The notes under the pieces are model-generated. The model did no database searches. It was not told where the DNA came from and was given only the letters and a program-made list of their open reading frames with translations. This document shows, piece by piece, positions 5,704-39,300 of a stretch of 42,364 nt of DNA (positions are counted from its first letter, which is position 1; every line of letters begins with the position of its first letter). This stretch comes from Candidatus Eiseniibacteriota bacterium (lineage in GTDB: Bacteria; Joyebacterota; Joyebacteria; Joyebacterales; Joyebacteraceae): assembly GCA_030639555.1 (NCBI GenBank), contig DAOWCM010000003.1, positions 1-42,364 on the forward strand. Direction: 5' to 3'. Made by a program: the position numbers and the translations under genes.

Positions 5704-6566
5704 TGAGCAATTCGGGTTTCCCGTGGTTCCCGTTCTACGTGCGGGACTGGCTGACAGACGTGAAGGTGATGTCGATGAGCTGCTGCGCTCGAGGGGCGTT
5801 CATACAGCTCCTGGCGCTGCAGTGGGAGAATGGGGGCCTCCCGCCCGAGTGGGACGACCTGGCGGCGCTCACGGGCTACCAGGACGGCTACGAGGACCTC
5901 GAGCGGCAGCTGGGCCCGCTCTTCCCCCCGACGGACGACGGCCGGCGCAACCCGCGCCTCGAGGAGCTGCGCCAGGAGAAGCTCGACAAGCGGGCCGCGC
6001 AGGCAGCTGGGGCTGCGTCCACTCACGTCTCCAATGCCAAGCGGCGTGCTAAGCAGACTGCTAAGCAGTTGGTACGCGCGTCTGAAGATCATGATGCAGA
6101 TACAGATGCAGAGAAGAAGAAGACATCCGTGCGCAAGCGCCCGGGAGCGTTGAAGGGGCCCACCCTTTTCGAGAGGTTCTGGAACTTCTACCCAAGGCGC
6201 AACGAGAAGCGCGTCGGCAAGAAGGCGACCCTCAACCGCTGGAAACGGCTGTCGGACGACGACAAGGAGGCGCTCTGGAAAGCAGCCAGGCACTACGCCC
6301 AGTCAAAGATCGCCCGGGTCGATGGGAAGGCTCGCGACCCGGAGCGGTTCCTCAAGGACGACTACTGGCGGGACTGGCTCGACGGGCCCGGCACGGACGT
6401 CCACGTTGAAGAGCGCGACAAACCACGCCCAGCTCCCAAGGTTGACCCAGGAGGGCCACCGGCCGATCCGGACGACGTCGCGGCTGAGCTGGGCCACGGA
6501 TCGTTCAGAGAGGCAACCAGGGCCCTTAGCATGGACGAGCGTCTGAAGAAGGAGGAGGGGCGATAG
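5703..6566 (+). CDS. DUF1376/YdaU-like replication initiator
   Basis: N-terminal PWFPFYVRDWLTD...ARGAFIQLL..QW..GGLP...NPRL; C-terminal FERFWNFYPRR..GKKA...W and PERFL replisome-organiser motifs. Confidence 0.8.
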   Translation: MSNSGFPWFPFYVRDWLTDVKVMSMSCCARGAFIQLLALQWENGGLPPEWDDLAALTGYQDGYEDLERQLGPLFPPTDDGRRNPRLEELRQEKLDKRAAQAAGAASTHVSNAKRRAKQTAKQLVRASEDHDADTDAEKKKTSVRKRPGALKGPTLFERFWNFYPRRNEKRVGKKATLNRWKRLSDDDKEALWKAARHYAQSKIARVDGKARDPERFLKDDYWRDWLDGPGTDVHVEERDKPRPAPKVDPGGPPADPDDVAAELGHGSFREATRALSMDERLKKEEGR

Positions 6567-34067: not shown

Positions 34068-34358
34068 TTACTCCTTGATCTGTTCGATGGCGATCGTGCC
34101 GCGCACCTTCACATAGAGCCCGGACGCCTTGTCCTTGAAGACCAGGACACTCGAGCCCTCGGGAGACCGGGTGTGGCCCTGGGAGGTCCACTCCCCGACG
34201 ACATTGCCGCCAGAGTAGAGCCGGACCCGGTGGTCCTTGCCACGAGAGGCGCGAGCCGCGTTCTCGGCGTCGGTGCAGCCAGAACAGTAGTAGATCACAC
34301 CGATAATGAGGATCCACGCGAAGATGGCTCGTACGACCCGAGGTCCGTTGGTGCGCAT
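34068..34358 (-). CDS. Putative lipoprotein
   Basis: Hydrophobic stretch ending in a lipobox-like CSG-C, then TDA...VRLYSGG..VGEWTS. Confidence 0.6.
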   Translation of the reverse strand: MRTNGPRVVRAIFAWILIIGVIYYCSGCTDAENAARASRGKDHRVRLYSGGNVVGEWTSQGHTRSPEGSSVLVFKDKASGLYVKVRGTIAIEQIKE

Positions 34359-34386
34359 TCTCTTAACCCATCAGGTTAATGAAAAC

Positions 34387-34503
34387 GGCCTGACGAAATC
34401 GAAGTGACGTGTTTATGGGGCCGAGCTTTCGCCATCCCCTCGCCGGCAGATGGGCCGGCGATAAGAATCGAACTTATGATGTAGTCACGACAGCATTCAG
34501 GCC
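34387..34503 (-). ncRNA. Y-RNA-like unit Y5 (Ro stem + T arm + closed acceptor hairpin + GAAA-tetraloop arm)
   Basis: GGCCUGA-AUGC...UUCG-UCAGGCC terminal stem; GUGAC/GUCAC upper stem; T arm AUAAG-UUCGAUU-CUUAU; acceptor CGCCGGC-CCAUCU-GCCGGCG. Confidence 0.8.
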
Positions 34504-34520
34504 GGGGCGTACTCTATAAA

Positions 34521-34595
34521 GAGCCGACAAGGATTGAAAGTGAGGGTACGAATCTCTTCCAAAAAGGGATGTACTCACTCTCGAGCATTCGGCTC
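34521..34595 (-). ncRNA. Minimal Y-RNA-like unit Y4 (75 nt)
   Basis: GAGCCGA-AUGC...CUUG-UCGGCUC contains the bacterial Y RNA GNCGAANG motif; upper stem GAGAGUGAG/CUCACUUUC. Confidence 0.8.
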
Positions 34596-34605
34596 ATCTC
34601 CGTAA

Positions 34606-34654
34606 GAGCGAAGCTGGGCCCGGACCCAACGCCATTTGACGACGTGCTTCGCTC
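34606..34654 (-). ncRNA. Structured RNA element A (three-way junction, 49 nt)
   Basis: 9-bp stem GAGCGAAGC/GCUUCGCUC enclosing hairpins ACGUCG-UCAAA-UGGCGU and UGGGU-CCGG-GCCCA; G-U pairs favour the minus strand. Confidence 0.5.
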
Positions 34655-34660
34655 AATTCT

Positions 34661-34749
34661 GGCACGGGCGGCTGCTGGGGCACCTGACTTCCCAGCTCTT
34701 CCTGCGCTTCACCGCGGTTCCACGCAGGCTGCGTTTGTAGGTTTGCGCC
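34661..34749 (-). ncRNA. Structured RNA element B (two hairpins in a closing stem, about 89 nt)
   Basis: GGCGC/GUGCC ends; hairpins CCUGCG...CGCAGG and GCUGGG...CCCAGC. Confidence 0.45.
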
Positions 34750-34772
34750 AAGCCTCCCTCATTCTGATTAGC

Positions 34773-34906
34773 GGCGCAACGAGGATTGGCGAGAGGGTTT
34801 TTGTGCTACCAATTACACTACACGGCCTTTTGAGGGGCCGCGTCCGGACTCGAACCGAAACTTTCTAAGTACAAATTAGATGTACTCTCAACCGAGCATT
34901 TGCGCC
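34773..34906 (-). ncRNA. YrlA-like Y RNA Y3 containing a complete circularly permuted tRNA (anticodon UGU)
   Basis: GGCGCAA-AUGC...CUCG-UUGCGCC. In order: anticodon arm UCUAA-UUUGUAC-UUAGA, T arm UUCGG-UUCGAGU-CCGGA, acceptor CGCGGCC-loop-GGCCGUG, UA, D arm GUGU-AAUUGGUA-GCAC. Confidence 0.88.
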
Positions 34907-34916
34907 TATTTTATAA

Positions 34917-34987
34917 GCCCCGACAAGGGGTAGATTCACGAGACGATATCAGATGTGAGATGTAGTCCCGTTGAGGGCATTCGGGGC
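34917..34987 (-). ncRNA. Minimal Y-RNA-like unit Y2 (71 nt)
   Basis: GCCCCGA-AUGC...CUUG-UCGGGGC; upper stem CGGGAC/GUCUCG followed by UACAU. Confidence 0.8.
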
Positions 34988-34994
34988 AATTCTT

Positions 34995-35008
34995 GTTTTC
35001 AAAGAGCA
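34995..35008 (-). promoter_or_regulatory. boxA-like (NusB/NusE) antitermination site
   Basis: Minus strand TGCTCTTTGAAAAC, versus rrn boxA TGCTCTTTAACA, in the spacer after the first Y RNA. Confidence 0.65.
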
Positions 35009-35013
35009 GTAGA

Positions 35014-35163
35014 GGCGCGACGAGTCTTCGAGTGAGGGACAACGGGTTTGACCCCGCAACGGTACTCTACCACTGAGTTACACAGTCGATTTAACGGCCG
35101 TGACTGGACTCGAACCAGCGACTCCCGGCTTGACAGGCATGTACTCACTCAGGCATTCGCGCC
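35014..35163 (-). ncRNA. YrlA-like Y RNA Y1 with a tRNA-Asp-like domain
   Basis: GGCGCGA-AUGC...CUCG-UCGCGCC; GAGUGAG/CUCACUC; GC-CUGUCAA-GC; T arm GCUGG-UUCGAGU-CCAGU; acceptor CACGGCC-G..C-GACUGUG; D arm ACUC-AGUGGUA-GAGU. Confidence 0.88.
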
Positions 35164-35600
35164 AGCTCGTTATCGTGTAGGGCCCTGGGTGAAAAGTAAA
35201 CTGGAATCTCTGGATGCTGGTGACGCCAGGCGTGCATGATCTTACGGATCCCCTTGCCGAAGCCCTCCTGTCGACGATCGAGCCCCGTGCGCGAGGTGTT
35301 GAGCCACACGACGGCGTCGACCTCAAGGCCCTTCCGAAGACAGCGCGGGACCTGAGTTCCGGCGACTATGAAAGATTCTTTCCCAGTCACCAGTGAGCAT
35401 ATCTTCGAGGGAATCGTCGGCCAGTCTTTCCTCGAGAGCACATCGGTATGGACAACCTCCTTCGGAGGGGTCCCACGTCCGCCTTCCTCGAGCAGCAAGG
35501 TTTTCCCGCTGTTCACCACGCCGGTCAAGGCGACGCGGGGATAGACCTCGAGCAATTTGCGCCAGACCGTCGGTGTAAGCTGTTCTTGTATCAGCGTCAT
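35145..35600 (-). CDS. Small P-loop kinase (adenylate/polynucleotide-kinase-like fold)
   Basis: RVALTGVVNSGKT Walker A, then VVHTD, FIVAG and VDAVVWL strands; 151 aa. Confidence 0.7.
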   Translation of the reverse strand: MTLIQEQLTPTVWRKLLEVYPRVALTGVVNSGKTLLLEEGGRGTPPKEVVHTDVLSRKDWPTIPSKICSLVTGKESFIVAGTQVPRCLRKGLEVDAVVWLNTSRTGLDRRQEGFGKGIRKIMHAWRHQHPEIPVYFSPRALHDNELARMPE

Positions 35601-35820
35601 TGACCAGCTTCTCCCAGCTCTCTCGGTTGGCCCAGATCGTGTTCGAGATCGAGTAGACGTAGCCCTTCGGGATGAACGGGCTCAGCTGGATCTGAAACGA
35701 CCACAGCATCGGCTTGTCAGGCGGAAAGAGCTGCGGCATCGTCTTCCTGGCGACACCGGCGGCTACCGCTATCGCTCCAAGAACGGCTTTGAGGAACGAA
35801 CGCCTTTCGACTCTTTCCAT
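35323..35820 (-). CDS. Twin-arginine-signal protein 2
   Basis: ATG 35820 after GGAG; MERVERRSFLKAVLGAIAVAAG; the C-terminal part overlaps the kinase ORF. Confidence 0.55.
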   Translation of the reverse strand: MERVERRSFLKAVLGAIAVAAGVARKTMPQLFPPDKPMLWSFQIQLSPFIPKGYVYSISNTIWANRESWEKLVNDADTRTAYTDGLAQIARGLSPRRLDRRGEQRENLAARGRRTWDPSEGGCPYRCALEERLADDSLEDMLTGDWERIFHSRRNSGPALSSEGP

Positions 35821-36068
35821 GATCCGTTCTCCATTCTCAGGTACACAAGCTCGTCGGTCGTCATCACGATGAGCGTCCCAGGGATGAGCTTCACTTTGGC
35901 GAGGCCCGGGTCGCCCTTCGCCATCGCCCAGATCCCCGGCTTGTACCAGTTGGTGTGCGTCACCACCGGATCGGGCTTCGGCATGACTGAAGGCAGCGCC
36001 CCAGGAACGACAAGGGCGGTGGCGCACCCGAGGGCTGCTTTCAGAAAACTACGACGGTTCCTTTTCAT
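35769..36068 (-). CDS. Twin-arginine-signal protein 1
   Basis: MKRNRRSFLKAALGCATALVVP; the start overlaps the Ro60 3' end. Confidence 0.6.
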   Translation of the reverse strand: MKRNRRSFLKAALGCATALVVPGALPSVMPKPDPVVTHTNWYKPGIWAMAKGDPGLAKVKLIPGTLIVMTTDELVYLRMENGSWKESKGVRSSKPFLER

Positions 36069-37704
36069 GCACAGACGTTAGCTCGACAGCCTTGATCTGG
36101 TCAACCCAGAAACCCTTCGACGCCTGGCCCTTCGCCACAGCGTCGAGAAAACGGAACACACTGTCGGAGAATCCCCCGACGTTGAAAATGTCGTCACGCT
36201 CCTTCGCTTGCGTAGACGCGTACGGGTTGATGTCGATGCAGACCATCTTCGCCTGCGGGCTTTTGCGCTTGAAATGCTCCCAGGCTCGCATCGTCCCTGT
36301 CGGCTGGTTCAGCCCTTGGAGGGACTGGTAGCGATAGCCCGGGTAGCGGCCGTTGGACTCGACCCAGGACTGGTTGTCGGACACGTAGACGCAGAGGTCC
36401 CCGGTGAGGCCCTGAGCGTTCAGGAGGTCGAGCGGTGCAGCCAGATTGGTAGCGCCCCCGTTGAAACGGGCCAGGATCTCCGTGTTGGTCATGACGGAGT
36501 CGCGCGGGTTGAGCCGGACGTTGTGCGCCCGCTGGTCGAACGGAATGACGACCGTCTTCGGGTTGGCGCGGAGAATCGCGGATGCCACCAGCGCGGCGAC
36601 CATCTGACAGGTTACCCGGGTCGTGGAGCCCTTGCGGGCGCCCGTGACCGGAGACTGCATGGAGCCCGAGACGTCGGGGAAGACATAGATCTGGCCGGTG
36701 GTCGAAGGGATGTTCTCGAGGGACGCGTCGAGTGCGTCCTGGAGAGCCTCGGAGATGTCGTGAGGCACGTCCTTGACCGCGTGGTATGCCATGAACAGCT
36801 GGTAGGGGAAGCAGCGAGCGCGGCGCACCAGCTCGGGGCTGGCGAGACGCCTGGCCACGACCTGGATCATCTTCGGGTCCTCGAACACCCCGTGTCGCTT
36901 GAAGGTGTTCAGGTTCATCCGGGTCATCTGCCACGGCGCGCGATTCGCGATGTCCGTCCACTCCTTCTTCCCGAGCTTCAGCGAGGTCAGCATCTGGAAG
37001 GGGACGTCGGGCACCTCGATGTCGATGCGGTCCTCGCCGACGCGGTGGGAGTAGGCCTTGTACGCCTCGAAGTCGCGGACGAGGTCCGGGAGCACATCCA
37101 GACCTTCGGCCCAGACGTTCTCGTTCTTCCCGATCAGGTACGCGAAGAGCGCGGCCTGCATCTTGCTCGCGGGCTTGGGGTGAACCATCTTGATCACGTC
37201 GGCGATCGACGGATCCTGGCCCACGGAGTCGCGGAAGAGCCGGTCGAACTTCCGTCCGGTCAGCCACCCGCGCACGAGGCGGCGGGGCGCGGATCCCATG
37301 CTCTTCCGACCGGTCACGCCCGAGCGGACGATCTGGACGAAGTTGCGCAGCATCCGTGCGTTGTCCATGACGAGCGGGAACGCCAGATTCAGCAGCGGAT
37401 CCTTCCGGGCAGCCAGCACCGCGCAGAGCAGCGCCGGCATGTCCTTCATGAACGCCTGGCGTCGAGCGTAGACCGCGGTGCGGGCGACGAAGTCCGAGCT
37501 GCAGCCATCGGCGAGCTTCAGCACCTTCTCGAGCTGGGCCTCCGCGGTCGCGTAGAACGTGTTGCCGAAGCAGCCGGTGGCGGCGAGCTGCGCGAGCCCG
37601 TGCTCGGAGCCCTGGTCGTACGCCGTGCCGCCTGCCTCGTTCTTGATGTCCGTGTTGGGGAGCAACTGTCCCCGAGTGGACGCAAAGACACCCTTGTTAG
37701 CCAT
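36049..37704 (-). CDS. rsr: Ro60 / TROVE-domain RNA-binding protein with C-terminal vWA domain
   Basis: 551 aa; NEAGGTAY...LAQLAATGCFGNTFY, AVYARRQAFMKDMPALL, RMLRNFVQIVRSG, DVIKMVHPKP, WQMTRMNLNTF; vWA MIDAS DVSGSM, GGATN, VSDNQSW, VGGFSDSVF; GGAGG RBS. Confidence 0.95.
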   Translation of the reverse strand: MANKGVFASTRGQLLPNTDIKNEAGGTAYDQGSEHGLAQLAATGCFGNTFYATAEAQLEKVLKLADGCSSDFVARTAVYARRQAFMKDMPALLCAVLAARKDPLLNLAFPLVMDNARMLRNFVQIVRSGVTGRKSMGSAPRRLVRGWLTGRKFDRLFRDSVGQDPSIADVIKMVHPKPASKMQAALFAYLIGKNENVWAEGLDVLPDLVRDFEAYKAYSHRVGEDRIDIEVPDVPFQMLTSLKLGKKEWTDIANRAPWQMTRMNLNTFKRHGVFEDPKMIQVVARRLASPELVRRARCFPYQLFMAYHAVKDVPHDISEALQDALDASLENIPSTTGQIYVFPDVSGSMQSPVTGARKGSTTRVTCQMVAALVASAILRANPKTVVIPFDQRAHNVRLNPRDSVMTNTEILARFNGGATNLAAPLDLLNAQGLTGDLCVYVSDNQSWVESNGRYPGYRYQSLQGLNQPTGTMRAWEHFKRKSPQAKMVCIDINPYASTQAKERDDIFNVGGFSDSVFRFLDAVAKGQASKGFWVDQIKAVELTSVHEKEPS

Positions 37705-37752: not shown

Positions 37753-38133
37753 CTACAGCCCCCGCGCCGCGATGTCCCGCGCCAAATCGAGGCACAGCCG
37801 GGTTCTCCAATCACCCACGCGCAGCATCATGGTCTCGACATCCACCTCGGCGACGACCCCGCCACCGTGGGTGATGCGGGCCATGTAGGAGTCCCGGTTC
37901 ATCCGACGCTGGACGAAGACGTCGTACTCGCTCGTGGGGAGGTGCCTCCGTATTTCGAGCTCGATCATCCCCGGCCAGCTACCGTCGATCTGCTGGCGCC
38001 GGCGCTGCTCCGCCAGTTCGTACATCGGGACCTGATTCACTCCAGAGAGATGTGGGGAGTCTGCCCATCCCAGAGGGCTCAGGCCTATGGCCTGGTCGTA
38101 TCCCTGCTGGGTGATGTGGAGGATCCGGCTCAC
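37753..38133 (-). CDS. Hypothetical protein
   Basis: GTGA-coupled ORF upstream of Ro60. Confidence 0.5.
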   Translation of the reverse strand: MSRILHITQQGYDQAIGLSPLGWADSPHLSGVNQVPMYELAEQRRRQQIDGSWPGMIELEIRRHLPTSEYDVFVQRRMNRDSYMARITHGGGVVAEVDVETMMLRVGDWRTRLCLDLARDIAARGL

Positions 38134-38291
38134 CGCTTGATCCCCTTCTCGACCCCGTCGGCGATGATCTCGACGGCCCCTGCTCGAGCGCGATCCAGGA
38201 GGTCCGATCGCTCCCGAGGGGGCGGGTTCATCAGCGCGATCCCCGCGAGGACGACGCCCAGGGCGACGAGCGCGACCTTCCAGAGCTTCAC
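38130..38291 (-). CDS. Small membrane/secreted protein (53 aa)
   Basis: GTG 38291 overlaps the upstream stop; MKLWKVALVALGVVLAGIALMN. Confidence 0.5.
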   Translation of the reverse strand: MKLWKVALVALGVVLAGIALMNPPPRERSDLLDRARAGAVEIIADGVEKGIKR

Positions 38292-38575
38292 CGGCTCTTC
38301 CTCACGACCGGCGGGGAGTGGACGTCGGACGGGCGGACGTTGCCGCCGCCGAGCGCGTACTTCCCGAGCCACTCGCGCGCGGCGGAGCGGACCTTCAGAT
38401 CCCCGTCGATGGCGTCCTGGACGCAGGCAGCCGCGACCTTCTCGATGTCGTCGGTCGAGATCTGGTTGATCACGGCCGCGAGGTAGCTGCGCTCGTTGCG
38501 CTTGCGCCTGACGGTCGCCACGAGGGTCTGGGCCTCGATGACGTCCTTATCGGTGAGGGGCGGCAGGTCGGTCAT
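38288..38575 (-). CDS. Small helical protein (TerS-like helix motif)
   Basis: DDIEKVAAACVQDAIDGD...AAREWLGKYALG resembles the A..GD..A..L motif of small phage packaging-associated proteins. Confidence 0.45.
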   Translation of the reverse strand: MTDLPPLTDKDVIEAQTLVATVRRKRNERSYLAAVINQISTDDIEKVAAACVQDAIDGDLKVRSAAREWLGKYALGGGNVRPSDVHSPPVVRKSR

Positions 38576-39300
38576 GCTCTTACTCTGAGGAGCCCGGGGA
38601 AGGTTTCAATGTCGGTGATCCCGCCTGAGGCGAACGGACTGTCCGTGTTGGCCGTGAAGAGGAAGTCCCGCCGGCGCTGGCGCGCGTGGGTGTAGTAGTG
38701 CTCGTCCTCACAGGTCAGCGTGTACTGGGCCTCGGGCGTGCCCTCGAGGATCTTGATCTGGAGCGTGAACAGCTCAGTGCCGCCCGGGATCGTGATCGGC
38801 GGGACGATCCGCTCCTGGCTCATGGAGAAGAACGCCGCCGCGTACTCCCACCACTCCTCGGGAAGCGCGTGGTGCGGGTCGTGCTTGACGAACTGGAAGA
38901 TTGACCAGAACTTCTCCTCCCCGTCCTCGTCGACCATGCCCTGTGCGGTGAGGTAGTCGGTCAGGTACTTCCCGAGCTTGACTCCGACGGCCTGGAAGAG
39001 CCCGTAGCCGCTCCGGGCGACGTTCGGGAGGAGGCCCACGCCGCCGCCGATGTGGAAGCCGCTCGTTTTGTAGACGCAGCCCGCCTCGACGGAGATCTCC
39101 ACGGTGTCGCCGGGACTCCCCTCGGCGTCCCCGATGTCGAAATACGGGACTCGGACCTTCGGAGGAGGAGGGGGCGGGGGCGCAGGAACGATAGGTTGTG
39201 GGTCTGGTCCGCCCCCGCCGGGGGGAGGGGTGATTGGAATTGTGACCGGTCCGTCTGAGACTTTGACGAGTTCGCCCTCGACGAGCATTGTTCCTCTCAT
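38572..39300 (-). CDS. Protein with Pro linker and cohesin-like beta-sandwich
   Basis: PPPPPPP linker, then FDIGDAEGSPGDTVEISV...ELFTLQIKILEGTPEAQYTL, a cohesin-like pattern. Confidence 0.55.
   Translation of the reverse strand: MRGTMLVEGELVKVSDGPVTIPITPPPGGGGPDPQPIVPAPPPPPPPKVRVPYFDIGDAEGSPGDTVEISVEAGCVYKTSGFHIGGGVGLLPNVARSGYGLFQAVGVKLGKYLTDYLTAQGMVDEDGEEKFWSIFQFVKHDPHHALPEEWWEYAAAFFSMSQERIVPPITIPGGTELFTLQIKILEGTPEAQYTLTCEDEHYYTHARQRRRDFLFTANTDSPFASGGITDIETFPGLLRVRA

Follow-up and report, generated by a model that had tools for sequence, protein, structure and literature searches.

The 42.4-kb stretch of DNA analysed here (the window) is an entire contig of the metagenome-assembled genome (MAG) of a Candidatus Eiseniibacteriota bacterium. 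It carries the phage hallmark genes for a major head protein, a portal, a large terminase, RecT and a PD-(D/E)XK nuclease. It also encodes a homologue of the RNA-binding protein Ro60, and downstream of this gene lie five tandem Y-RNA-like genes, all on the minus strand:

36049..37704, minus strand: Ro60 homologue gene (vWA_Ro60, PF25045, 40.1 bits; TROVE, PF05731, 26.6 bits)
35011..35163, minus strand: Y1, YrlA-type Y RNA with a split anticodon arm (loop CUGUCAA; two cis and three trans pairs); Rfam YrlA 34.5 bits; member of the 20-nt class described below
34917..34987, minus strand: Y2, short stem-loop Y RNA (fold z-score -3.21; syntenic copy in the related locus L189)
34773..34906, minus strand: Y3, complete YrlA-type Y RNA, the feature under study (Rfam YrlA 30.4 bits; sequence reading)
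34521..34595, minus strand: Y4, short stem-loop Y RNA (fold; syntenic copies in the related loci L188 and L189)
34387..34503, minus strand: Y5, T arm and closed acceptor-like hairpin, lacking the anticodon-arm hairpin (fold; syntenic copies)

Y3 is the third RNA of this array and has the Ro60 gene 1.1 kb upstream on the same strand, within the 4 kb used to recognize the YrlA class. It is probably a tailed-phage Y RNA of that class in which a hairpin at 34880-34864 forms and imitates the anticodon stem-loop, completing the look-alike of a whole tRNA that does not take part in decoding. Counted from 34906 on the minus strand as position 1, it comprises about 134 nt with the following parts:

34885..34906 (positions 1-22), minus strand: 5′ strand of the Ro stem, with GCGCAAAUGC, which varies the published Ro60 motif; in the fold, paired to 34773-34797
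34881..34884 (positions 23-26), minus strand: UACA linker, the xUACA motif found family-wide; TACA is invariant in alignments A2 and A3
34864..34880, minus strand: anticodon-arm mimic, UCUAA (27-31), loop UUUGUAC (32-38) and UUAGA (39-43); direct reading
34860..34863 (positions 44-47), minus strand: 4-nt variable loop AAGU (G46; U48 opposite A15); direct reading
34843..34859 (positions 48-64), minus strand: T arm UUCGG/UUCGAGU/CCGGA; reading and Rfam, helix 100% paired in A2
34821..34842, minus strand: acceptor-like stem of 7 bp closed by the 8-nt loop CCUCAAAA; direct reading
34802..34820, minus strand: U8-A9 (UA, 87-88), D arm with GG, and A26 (position 105); D helix 100% paired in A2
34773..34801, minus strand: A-rich linker and 3′ strand of the Ro stem, to position 134; fold and alignment

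In the anticodon-arm mimic, UCUAA (34880-34876) and UUAGA (34868-34864) form 5 bp around the 7-nt loop UUUGUAC (34875-34869), which has U at position 33 and A at position 37. The acceptor-like stem begins with its 3′ strand CGCGGCC (65-71), followed by the loop CCUCAAAA (72-79) and the 5′ strand GGCCGUG (80-86), and the D arm reads GUGU/AAUUGGUA/GCAC (89-104). Y3 therefore has the YrlA order of elements, T arm, closed acceptor-like stem-loop and D arm, together with the nucleotides of tRNA tertiary pairing, the 15-48 pair being A-U. A preliminary description had seen in Y3 a tRNA in rotated order with a complete anticodon arm and a cloverleaf opened at 26/27 to take the Ro stem; every element it listed is present, and the junction is borne out by the sequence. 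The Ro motif GCGCAAAUGC departs from the published consensus GNCGAAN0-1G (Chen et al., 2014; PMC4201824) in having A at the motif's G, while L189 has CGAAUGC, and L061 and L066 have CAAAUGC.

Like other YrlA RNAs (RF02553), Y3 lies next to a Ro60 gene and has paired ends, with a variant of the Ro60 motif in the 5′ strand. Read 5′ to 3′, its T arm precedes a closed acceptor-like hairpin and this in turn the D arm. Conserved positions common to both are U8, G18G19, the T-loop nucleotides and the 15-48 pair. The structure of Salmonella YrlA, by contrast, 'lacks the anticodon loop', its Ro module continuing the anticodon stem (Wang et al., 2018; 10.1101/312249), whereas Y3 has a stand-alone arm of 5 bp and 7 nt and its Ro stem leaves at 26/27. 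The earlier assumption that a canonical YrlA has no anticodon arm is thus right for Salmonella, but 55 of the 105 YrlA-like RNAs surveyed below, including Y1, carry one, mostly with two or three trans pairs. A hairpin at this place in YrlA was recorded as 'V', for variable arm (Chen et al., 2014; PMC4201824). A statement that the V hairpin has anticodon-loop features was not found in the literature searched, and a prior description may exist in reviews or in the supplementary figures of the 2014 paper.

Close orthologues of Y3 were recovered by a pattern scan of metagenome contigs, where they lie in syntenic Y RNA arrays, with five Y RNAs in L189 and seven in L188:

L188:552-687: Y3 orthologue with stem UCUAA/UUAGG and loop UUCAUAC
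L189:1190-1324: Y3 orthologue with a stem identical to that of Y3 and loop CUUGUAA

A further DNA variant, X15 (from a sequencing run; a single contig of depth 5.8), keeps the stem and carries compensatory changes in the T and acceptor stems. The loops of the four close variants are UUUGUAC, CUUGUAA, UUCAUAC and UUCAUUC, with U33 in all four and A37 in three. Conservation of the 'anticodon' among homologues, put forward as a check, fails at this level: it is UGU in two of the four and CAU in the other two.

A wider subgroup is defined by the D arm GUGUAAU and a spacing of 21 nt from UACA to the T stem. Its distant members are L145 (on the same contig as L014), L187, L190, L184 (to which L185 and L186 are identical) and L170. 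In alignment A2, which comprises eight RNAs, the cloverleaf is 97.0% paired, compared to 75.2% in shuffled alignments, none of which (0/500) reached the observed value. The helix of the anticodon arm (columns 29-33/41-45) is 95% paired, with changes on both sides at four of its five pairs, so that the hairpin and its 7-nt loop length, on whose conservation the preliminary description had staked its reading, are kept in relatives. The mutually exclusive hairpin AGUACA/UGUACU is 64.6% paired in A2 against 61.2% in shuffles and is equalled in 138 of 500. Since relatives keep the stem with two-sided changes while its competitor stays at shuffle level, the comparison supports the anticodon-like hairpin despite the folding energies given below. 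The subgroup pattern had no match in the genome contig collection. A looser pattern found 74 loci in viral contigs, mostly tandem tRNA genes; about 16 appeared Y-RNA-like by eye, and few of these belong to the GUGUAAU subgroup with a Ro motif.

The arm is not confined to the relatives of Y3. The family-wide survey covered the window and 100 loci, 20 of them from IMG/VR and 80 from genomes, each surrounding a Ro60 homologue that shares 40-56% identity with the phage protein. A pattern of T arm, closed acceptor hairpin, U8 and D arm gave 133 matches, 106 of which also have an upstream Ro motif and xTWCA; 105 of these are non-identical, and the 27 that were dropped are mostly tandem tRNA genes. 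An arm was taken to fit if a 7-nt loop is closed by five pairs, some formed in trans by the bases after N26 (t) and some in cis (h). Such an arm fits 55 of the 105 RNAs, compared to 3.1 (standard deviation 1.7, maximum 8) when the 30 nt upstream of the variable region are shuffled in 200 rounds, and other loop lengths (3-6 and 8-11 nt) fit only 2-19. The loop bases played no part in the selection. In the 55 fitting RNAs, position 32 is C in 33, U in 19 and A in three, position 33 is U in 50, position 37 is A in 44 and G in eight, and position 38 is A in 43, while positions 34-36 hold 24 different triplets. The pairs are split as t=2, h=3 in 36 RNAs, t=3, h=2 in 16, t=1, h=4 in one and t=0, h=5 in two, Y3 and L014. 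About half of the surveyed YrlA RNAs accordingly build the arm from two or three trans pairs and a hairpin of 2-3 bp, and Y3 is the cis version.

The same architecture emerges when sequences are chosen by length only. All 38 RNAs with exactly 20 nt from xUACA to the T stem (the 20-nt class, Y1 included) form both trans pairs, with two-sided changes in 10 and 14 sequences, respectively. The cis pairs form in 38 and 36 of the 38, and the fifth position is cis-pairable in 25 and trans-pairable in 26. The whole structure is 97.6% paired in this class compared to 72.2% in shuffles (0/500). In addition, position 15 and the base that immediately precedes the T stem covary (GC in 57, AU in 44 and other combinations in four of the 105), as already reported for this Levitt pair (Chen et al., 2014; PMC4201824). 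The role of variable loop therefore falls to the 4-5 nt that follow the arm, which means that the hairpin itself is no variable arm. The point at which the Ro stem branches off is 26/27 in Y3, and most relatives have it at 28/29 or 29/30. The YrlA of Mycobacterium phage Cali fits the scheme as well, with CUC/AUUGCAA/GAG and two trans pairs.

Two further observations concern the distribution of these RNAs. In the 31 genomes of the MAG's phylum, the sole other YrlA-like match (L198, G013:C194:1252-1363; 39.7 bits) has an arm UUCGC/CUGCUAA/GCGAG whose five pairs are all possible in cis, or two of them in trans. In Verrucomicrobial loci (L031, L037, L040, L045, L051 and L062, at about 5900-6400 in each), three tandem YrlAs follow Ro60: one with the arm hairpin, one with a 15-nt insert that has no evident hairpin, and one lacking the insert.

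The neighbouring Y1 bears on the ancestry of the arm. Positions 17-68 of Y1 (35096-35147, minus strand) are colinear with positions 21-71 of the MAG's tRNA-Lys(UUU) (G000:C138), with 44 of 51 columns identical. The match spans the 3′ strand of the D stem, A26, the anticodon arm, the variable loop, the T arm and the 3′ strand of the acceptor stem, and an identical match of 50 nt recurs in 24 of the 31 genomes of the phylum. This likeness suggests that Y1 derives from tRNA, consistent with the dimeric-tRNA origin model cited by Wang et al. (2018; 10.1101/312249), who also remark on the resemblance of YrlA to circularly permuted pre-tRNAs. In the alignment, UACA would match three successive parts of an ancestral first tRNA: the end of its D stem, position 26 and the bases that open its anticodon stem. 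The match also hints that the MAG's lineage is the host of the phage. An attP-type origin was considered for the Y1 likeness and rejected: the identity is 86%, not near 100%, and the contig has no tyrosine integrase (two matches lie instead on contigs C160 and C301; serine integrases were not searched for).

Y1 has a second hairpin at 35043-35056 (minus strand), after the D arm and the trans pairs, with a stem of 4-5 bp and the loop GUCAAA. It sits where a 'second tRNA' would have its anticodon arm and shares GUCAA with the loop of the first arm, CUGUCAA; the loop differs in L188. Real tandem tRNA genes near Ro60 loci (L034:3660, L041:243, L065:3087 and L109:3565) were false positives of the scan, the first having the order Thr(CGU), Asn(GUU). 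The acceptor strands of such tandem tRNAs are complementary enough to mimic the acceptor hairpin of YrlA, and this arrangement is the starting configuration of the dimeric-tRNA model.

Y3 itself shows no comparable match. In permuted order it is 63% identical to the MAG's tRNA-Thr(UGU), below its best match of 68% to tRNA-Cys, and recent capture of a tRNA-Thr gene was rejected as its source. It retains UACA but differs from the common form by 2 extra nt in the 5′ strand and 1 nt fewer in the variable loop, and for these reasons the cis arm looks derived. An evolutionary intermediate between tRNA and YrlA, which the preliminary description had proposed, is therefore an unlikely role for Y3.

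Several features speak against decoding. The acceptor end is the closed loop CCUCAAAA, with no encoded CCA. In L188 and L189, positions 1 and 72 face each other as a C.C or A.C mismatch, X15 changes G1 to A, and pair 1-72 is unformed in three of the eight rows of A2. Family triplets at 34-36 include stop-type and A34 'anticodons'. Because these features coincide with the switch between UGU and CAU and with the lack of any special likeness to tRNA-Thr, Y3 is best read as a tRNA mimic and a variant of the known YrlA class rather than as a decoder. Elsewhere in the family, N73-CCA directly follows a 7-bp acceptor-like stem, in the closing loop, in eight of the 105 YrlA-like RNAs, where about 1.6 would be expected by chance. 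They include L014:2732 (the same as L145:4343-4469, of the cis subgroup), L037:6033, L062:2800, L065:5934, L085:5945 and three others, and they hint that some YrlAs are built for RNase P and 3′-end processing.

A number of results weigh against the hairpin or limit its reach. In nearest-neighbour calculations, the anticodon arm alone has an energy of -0.5 kcal/mol compared to -4.6 for the AGUACA/UGUACU hairpin. Ensemble pair probabilities are 0.17-0.19 for the arm and 0.50-0.78 for its competitor, and the minimum free energy fold of Y3 contains the latter; the full structures with one or the other are equal in computed energy, at -41.2 kcal/mol. With the Rfam YrlA model, Y3 scores 30.4 bits (E 0.00068 in a 3-kb search), far short of the 69 bits set as gathering score, and Rfam gathering scores are reached nowhere in the window. 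Among relatives, the arm stem is near-invariant in the three or four closest, so that the covariation stems from the distant members of the subgroup. One candidate, L191, was left out of A2 as a poor fit (three of five arm pairs and three of seven acceptor pairs), and the X15 loop UUCAUUC places U at position 37. In the survey, 50 of the 105 RNAs lack the arm, which is consequently not required for the class, and the loci were picked by Ro60 similarity to this phage and are mutually related, so that the counts are not independent events.

In the Rfam YrlA alignment of Y3, the hairpin is accommodated as an insertion of 13 nt, and non-standard flags fall on four of the model's pairs. The Rfam tRNA model gives Y3 23.9 bits (gathering score 29) in a partial alignment lacking the D arm, and ARAGORN finds no tRNA gene in the window in genomic order. 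Once Y3 is re-permuted as the preliminary description had suggested, ARAGORN does call a tRNA-Thr(tgt), but this outcome is nearly uninformative on the arm: a call is still made for 280 of 300 constructs whose 17-nt arm was shuffled, and for none whose arm was deleted. The permutation test across the family (55 of 55 called) was discarded as support for the arm, as the shuffled-arm control renders it non-discriminating.

Two other explanations question the anticodon-arm reading. The hairpin could be a poorly conserved 'V' stem-loop acting as spacer or stabilizer, its likeness to an anticodon arm being incidental in Y3. The 50 YrlA-like RNAs with no fitting arm, the free triplet at 34-36 and the thermodynamic weakness of the stem agree with such a role, yet a spacer would not be expected to prefer a 7-nt loop so strongly (55 RNAs, against 2-19 for other lengths), to conserve Y32, U33, R37 and A38 although these were not selected for, or to make trans and cis pairs add up to five with a separate variable loop of 4-5 nt, covarying at 15-48, between the hairpin and the T stem. 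We consider this explanation unlikely. Alternatively, Y3 could be a conformational switch in which GUACA pairs with UGUAC of the loop (AGUACA/UGUACU) and the arm is just an alternative state, as the minimum free energy fold, the ensemble (0.50-0.78) and the equal energies of both full structures (-41.2 kcal/mol) would allow. However, shuffled alignments reach the pairing of the competing hairpin so readily, the L188 loop UUCAUAC loses most of it, and a loop reading UGU-A is complementary to the family's UACA by construction, that a switch of this kind seems highly improbable.

Two more explanations grant that the arm is tRNA-like but differ on what it is for. Y3 might be a precursor that RNase P cleavage, 3′ trimming and CCA addition convert into a two-piece, possibly aminoacylated tRNA-Thr tethered to Ro60. 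A precedent exists in M. smegmatis, whose YrlA, with 7 bp in its acceptor stem, is cleaved in vivo at the RNase P site and acquires CA, while both halves remain with Rsr; no other YrlA has been shown to undergo this cut and CA addition (Chen et al., 2014; PMC4201824). The 7-bp stem of Y3 and the eight N73-CCA relatives, including L014/L145 of the cis subgroup, point the same way. Against this stand the loop CCUCAAAA with no CCA, the mismatched 1-72 pair of the closest orthologues and the G1 to A change in X15, an anticodon that flips between UGU and CAU in near-identical bodies, and the fact that Y3 is no closer to the MAG's tRNA-Thr(UGU), at 63%, than to its other tRNAs, all of which makes a precursor very unlikely. 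The arm could instead be a relic, kept neutrally since Y RNAs arose from tRNA under the dimeric-tRNA model, with Y3 a little-changed intermediate. The colinearity of Y1 with tRNA-Lys(UUU) fits that model, but positions 32, 33, 37 and 38, the loop length and the sum of 5 bp are kept across phyla while 34-36 drift, which indicates selection and not decay. Moreover, Y3 is 2 nt out of register with Y1 and the tRNA and retains UACA, so that its cis stem looks secondary, and its best identity to any MAG tRNA is 68%. A relic is accordingly a doubtful explanation, and an improbable one on balance.

The preferred reading, an anticodon-arm mimic on a whole-tRNA look-alike, allows a mechanism to be sketched. 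By homology, the paired ends of Y3, with a variant of the motif in the 5′ strand, would be the handle bound by Ro60. The remainder would present a tRNA in rotated order, with anticodon-arm mimic, 4-nt variable loop, T arm, loop-sealed acceptor stem and D arm probably adopting the L shape, and the Ro handle would be a side branch on it. In the relatives with a split arm, the 3′ strand at 39-43 is continuous, and, going by how three-way junctions usually behave, the trans and cis parts should for that reason stack as a single 5-bp stem, which would lie under N26 and the D stem. Held on Ro60, the RNA most likely offers this look-alike to host factors that bind tRNA, serving as a tether or a decoy. 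Since the U-turn frame is kept while the triplet is free, the partner may recognize the anticodon loop by its shape.

Comparison with other systems sharpens this picture. Both M. smegmatis YrlA and Y3 have a 7-bp acceptor-like stem, but Y3 lacks CCA and its orthologues lose pair 1-72. The hairpin labelled 'V' in the 2014 paper behaves as an anticodon arm in the present survey. In D. radiodurans, Yrn1 resembles Y3 in having a potential 'anticodon arm' with a 5-bp stem, but this arm has a 6-nt loop and is placed between the T arm and a D arm that is incomplete; Y3 keeps to the YrlA order, with a loop of 7 nt. Circularly permuted pre-tRNAs of red algae and an archaeon (cited in 10.1101/312249) likewise have the 3′ half first, a closed acceptor loop and ends that pair near the anticodon stem. 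They are spliced and processed into working tRNAs, by enzymes that have not been reported from bacteria, whereas the 'anticodon' of Y3 is not conserved and nothing indicates excision of its Ro stem. Thermus phage phiLo also has a phage Ro60 with the adjacent Y RNAs Yrl1 and Yrl2, for which assembly with host PNPase has been reported (PMC12135203). Yrl1 and Yrl2 are described as stem-bulge-stem RNAs, and the terms 'tRNA-like' and 'anticodon' do not occur in that paper.

An open reading frame (ORF) at 35145-35600 (minus strand) encodes 151 aa that include a Walker-A-like GxxxxGKT. It is situated between Ro60 and the Y array and reaches into the first bases of Y1. This ORF and those at 35323-36027, 35769-36068, 37753-38133, 38288-38575 and 38572-39300, among others, match no Pfam or PHROG family, and the same comparison recognized no RNA ligase or repair gene among the neighbouring ORFs. 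A promoter and terminator scan of 34200-36200 gave no signal above shuffles, and blastn of the Y region against the phage collection gave no match. One of the seven Y RNAs in L188 (225-360, plus strand) has a different architecture, unlike YrlA: its elements follow natural tRNA order (D arm, a 5-bp hairpin with a GAAA loop, AGGUC and T arm), and a Ro-type stem occupies the place of the acceptor stem.

Since 2014, no partner has been named for the tRNA-like half of bacterial and phage Y RNAs, and the search for one has centred on the tRNA elbow (10.1101/312249). An anticodon stem-loop look-alike that is split by the Ro handle in most of these RNAs and intact in Y3 would widen the candidates to readers of the anticodon loop. 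More broadly, and tentatively given its low probability, YrlAs may in general be complete permuted tRNAs whose U-turn frame (Y32 U33 ... R37 A38) is selected while 34-36 turn over fast, even among phage orthologues that are nearly identical. Phage arrays, with 5-7 Y RNAs each, would then display several 'anticodons' on Ro60, which could act as decoys, sensors or guides for anticodon-loop enzymes such as host-defence anticodon nucleases, RtcB-type repair enzymes or position-37 modification enzymes. If true, this would name the class of the long-sought YrlA effector. The hairpin named 'V' may be mislabelled, and the colinearity of Y1 with tRNA-Lys provides sequence-level support for the dimeric-tRNA origin model. 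For this phage, Ro60 and its array of tRNA mimics may constitute a tool for handling the RNA metabolism of its host.

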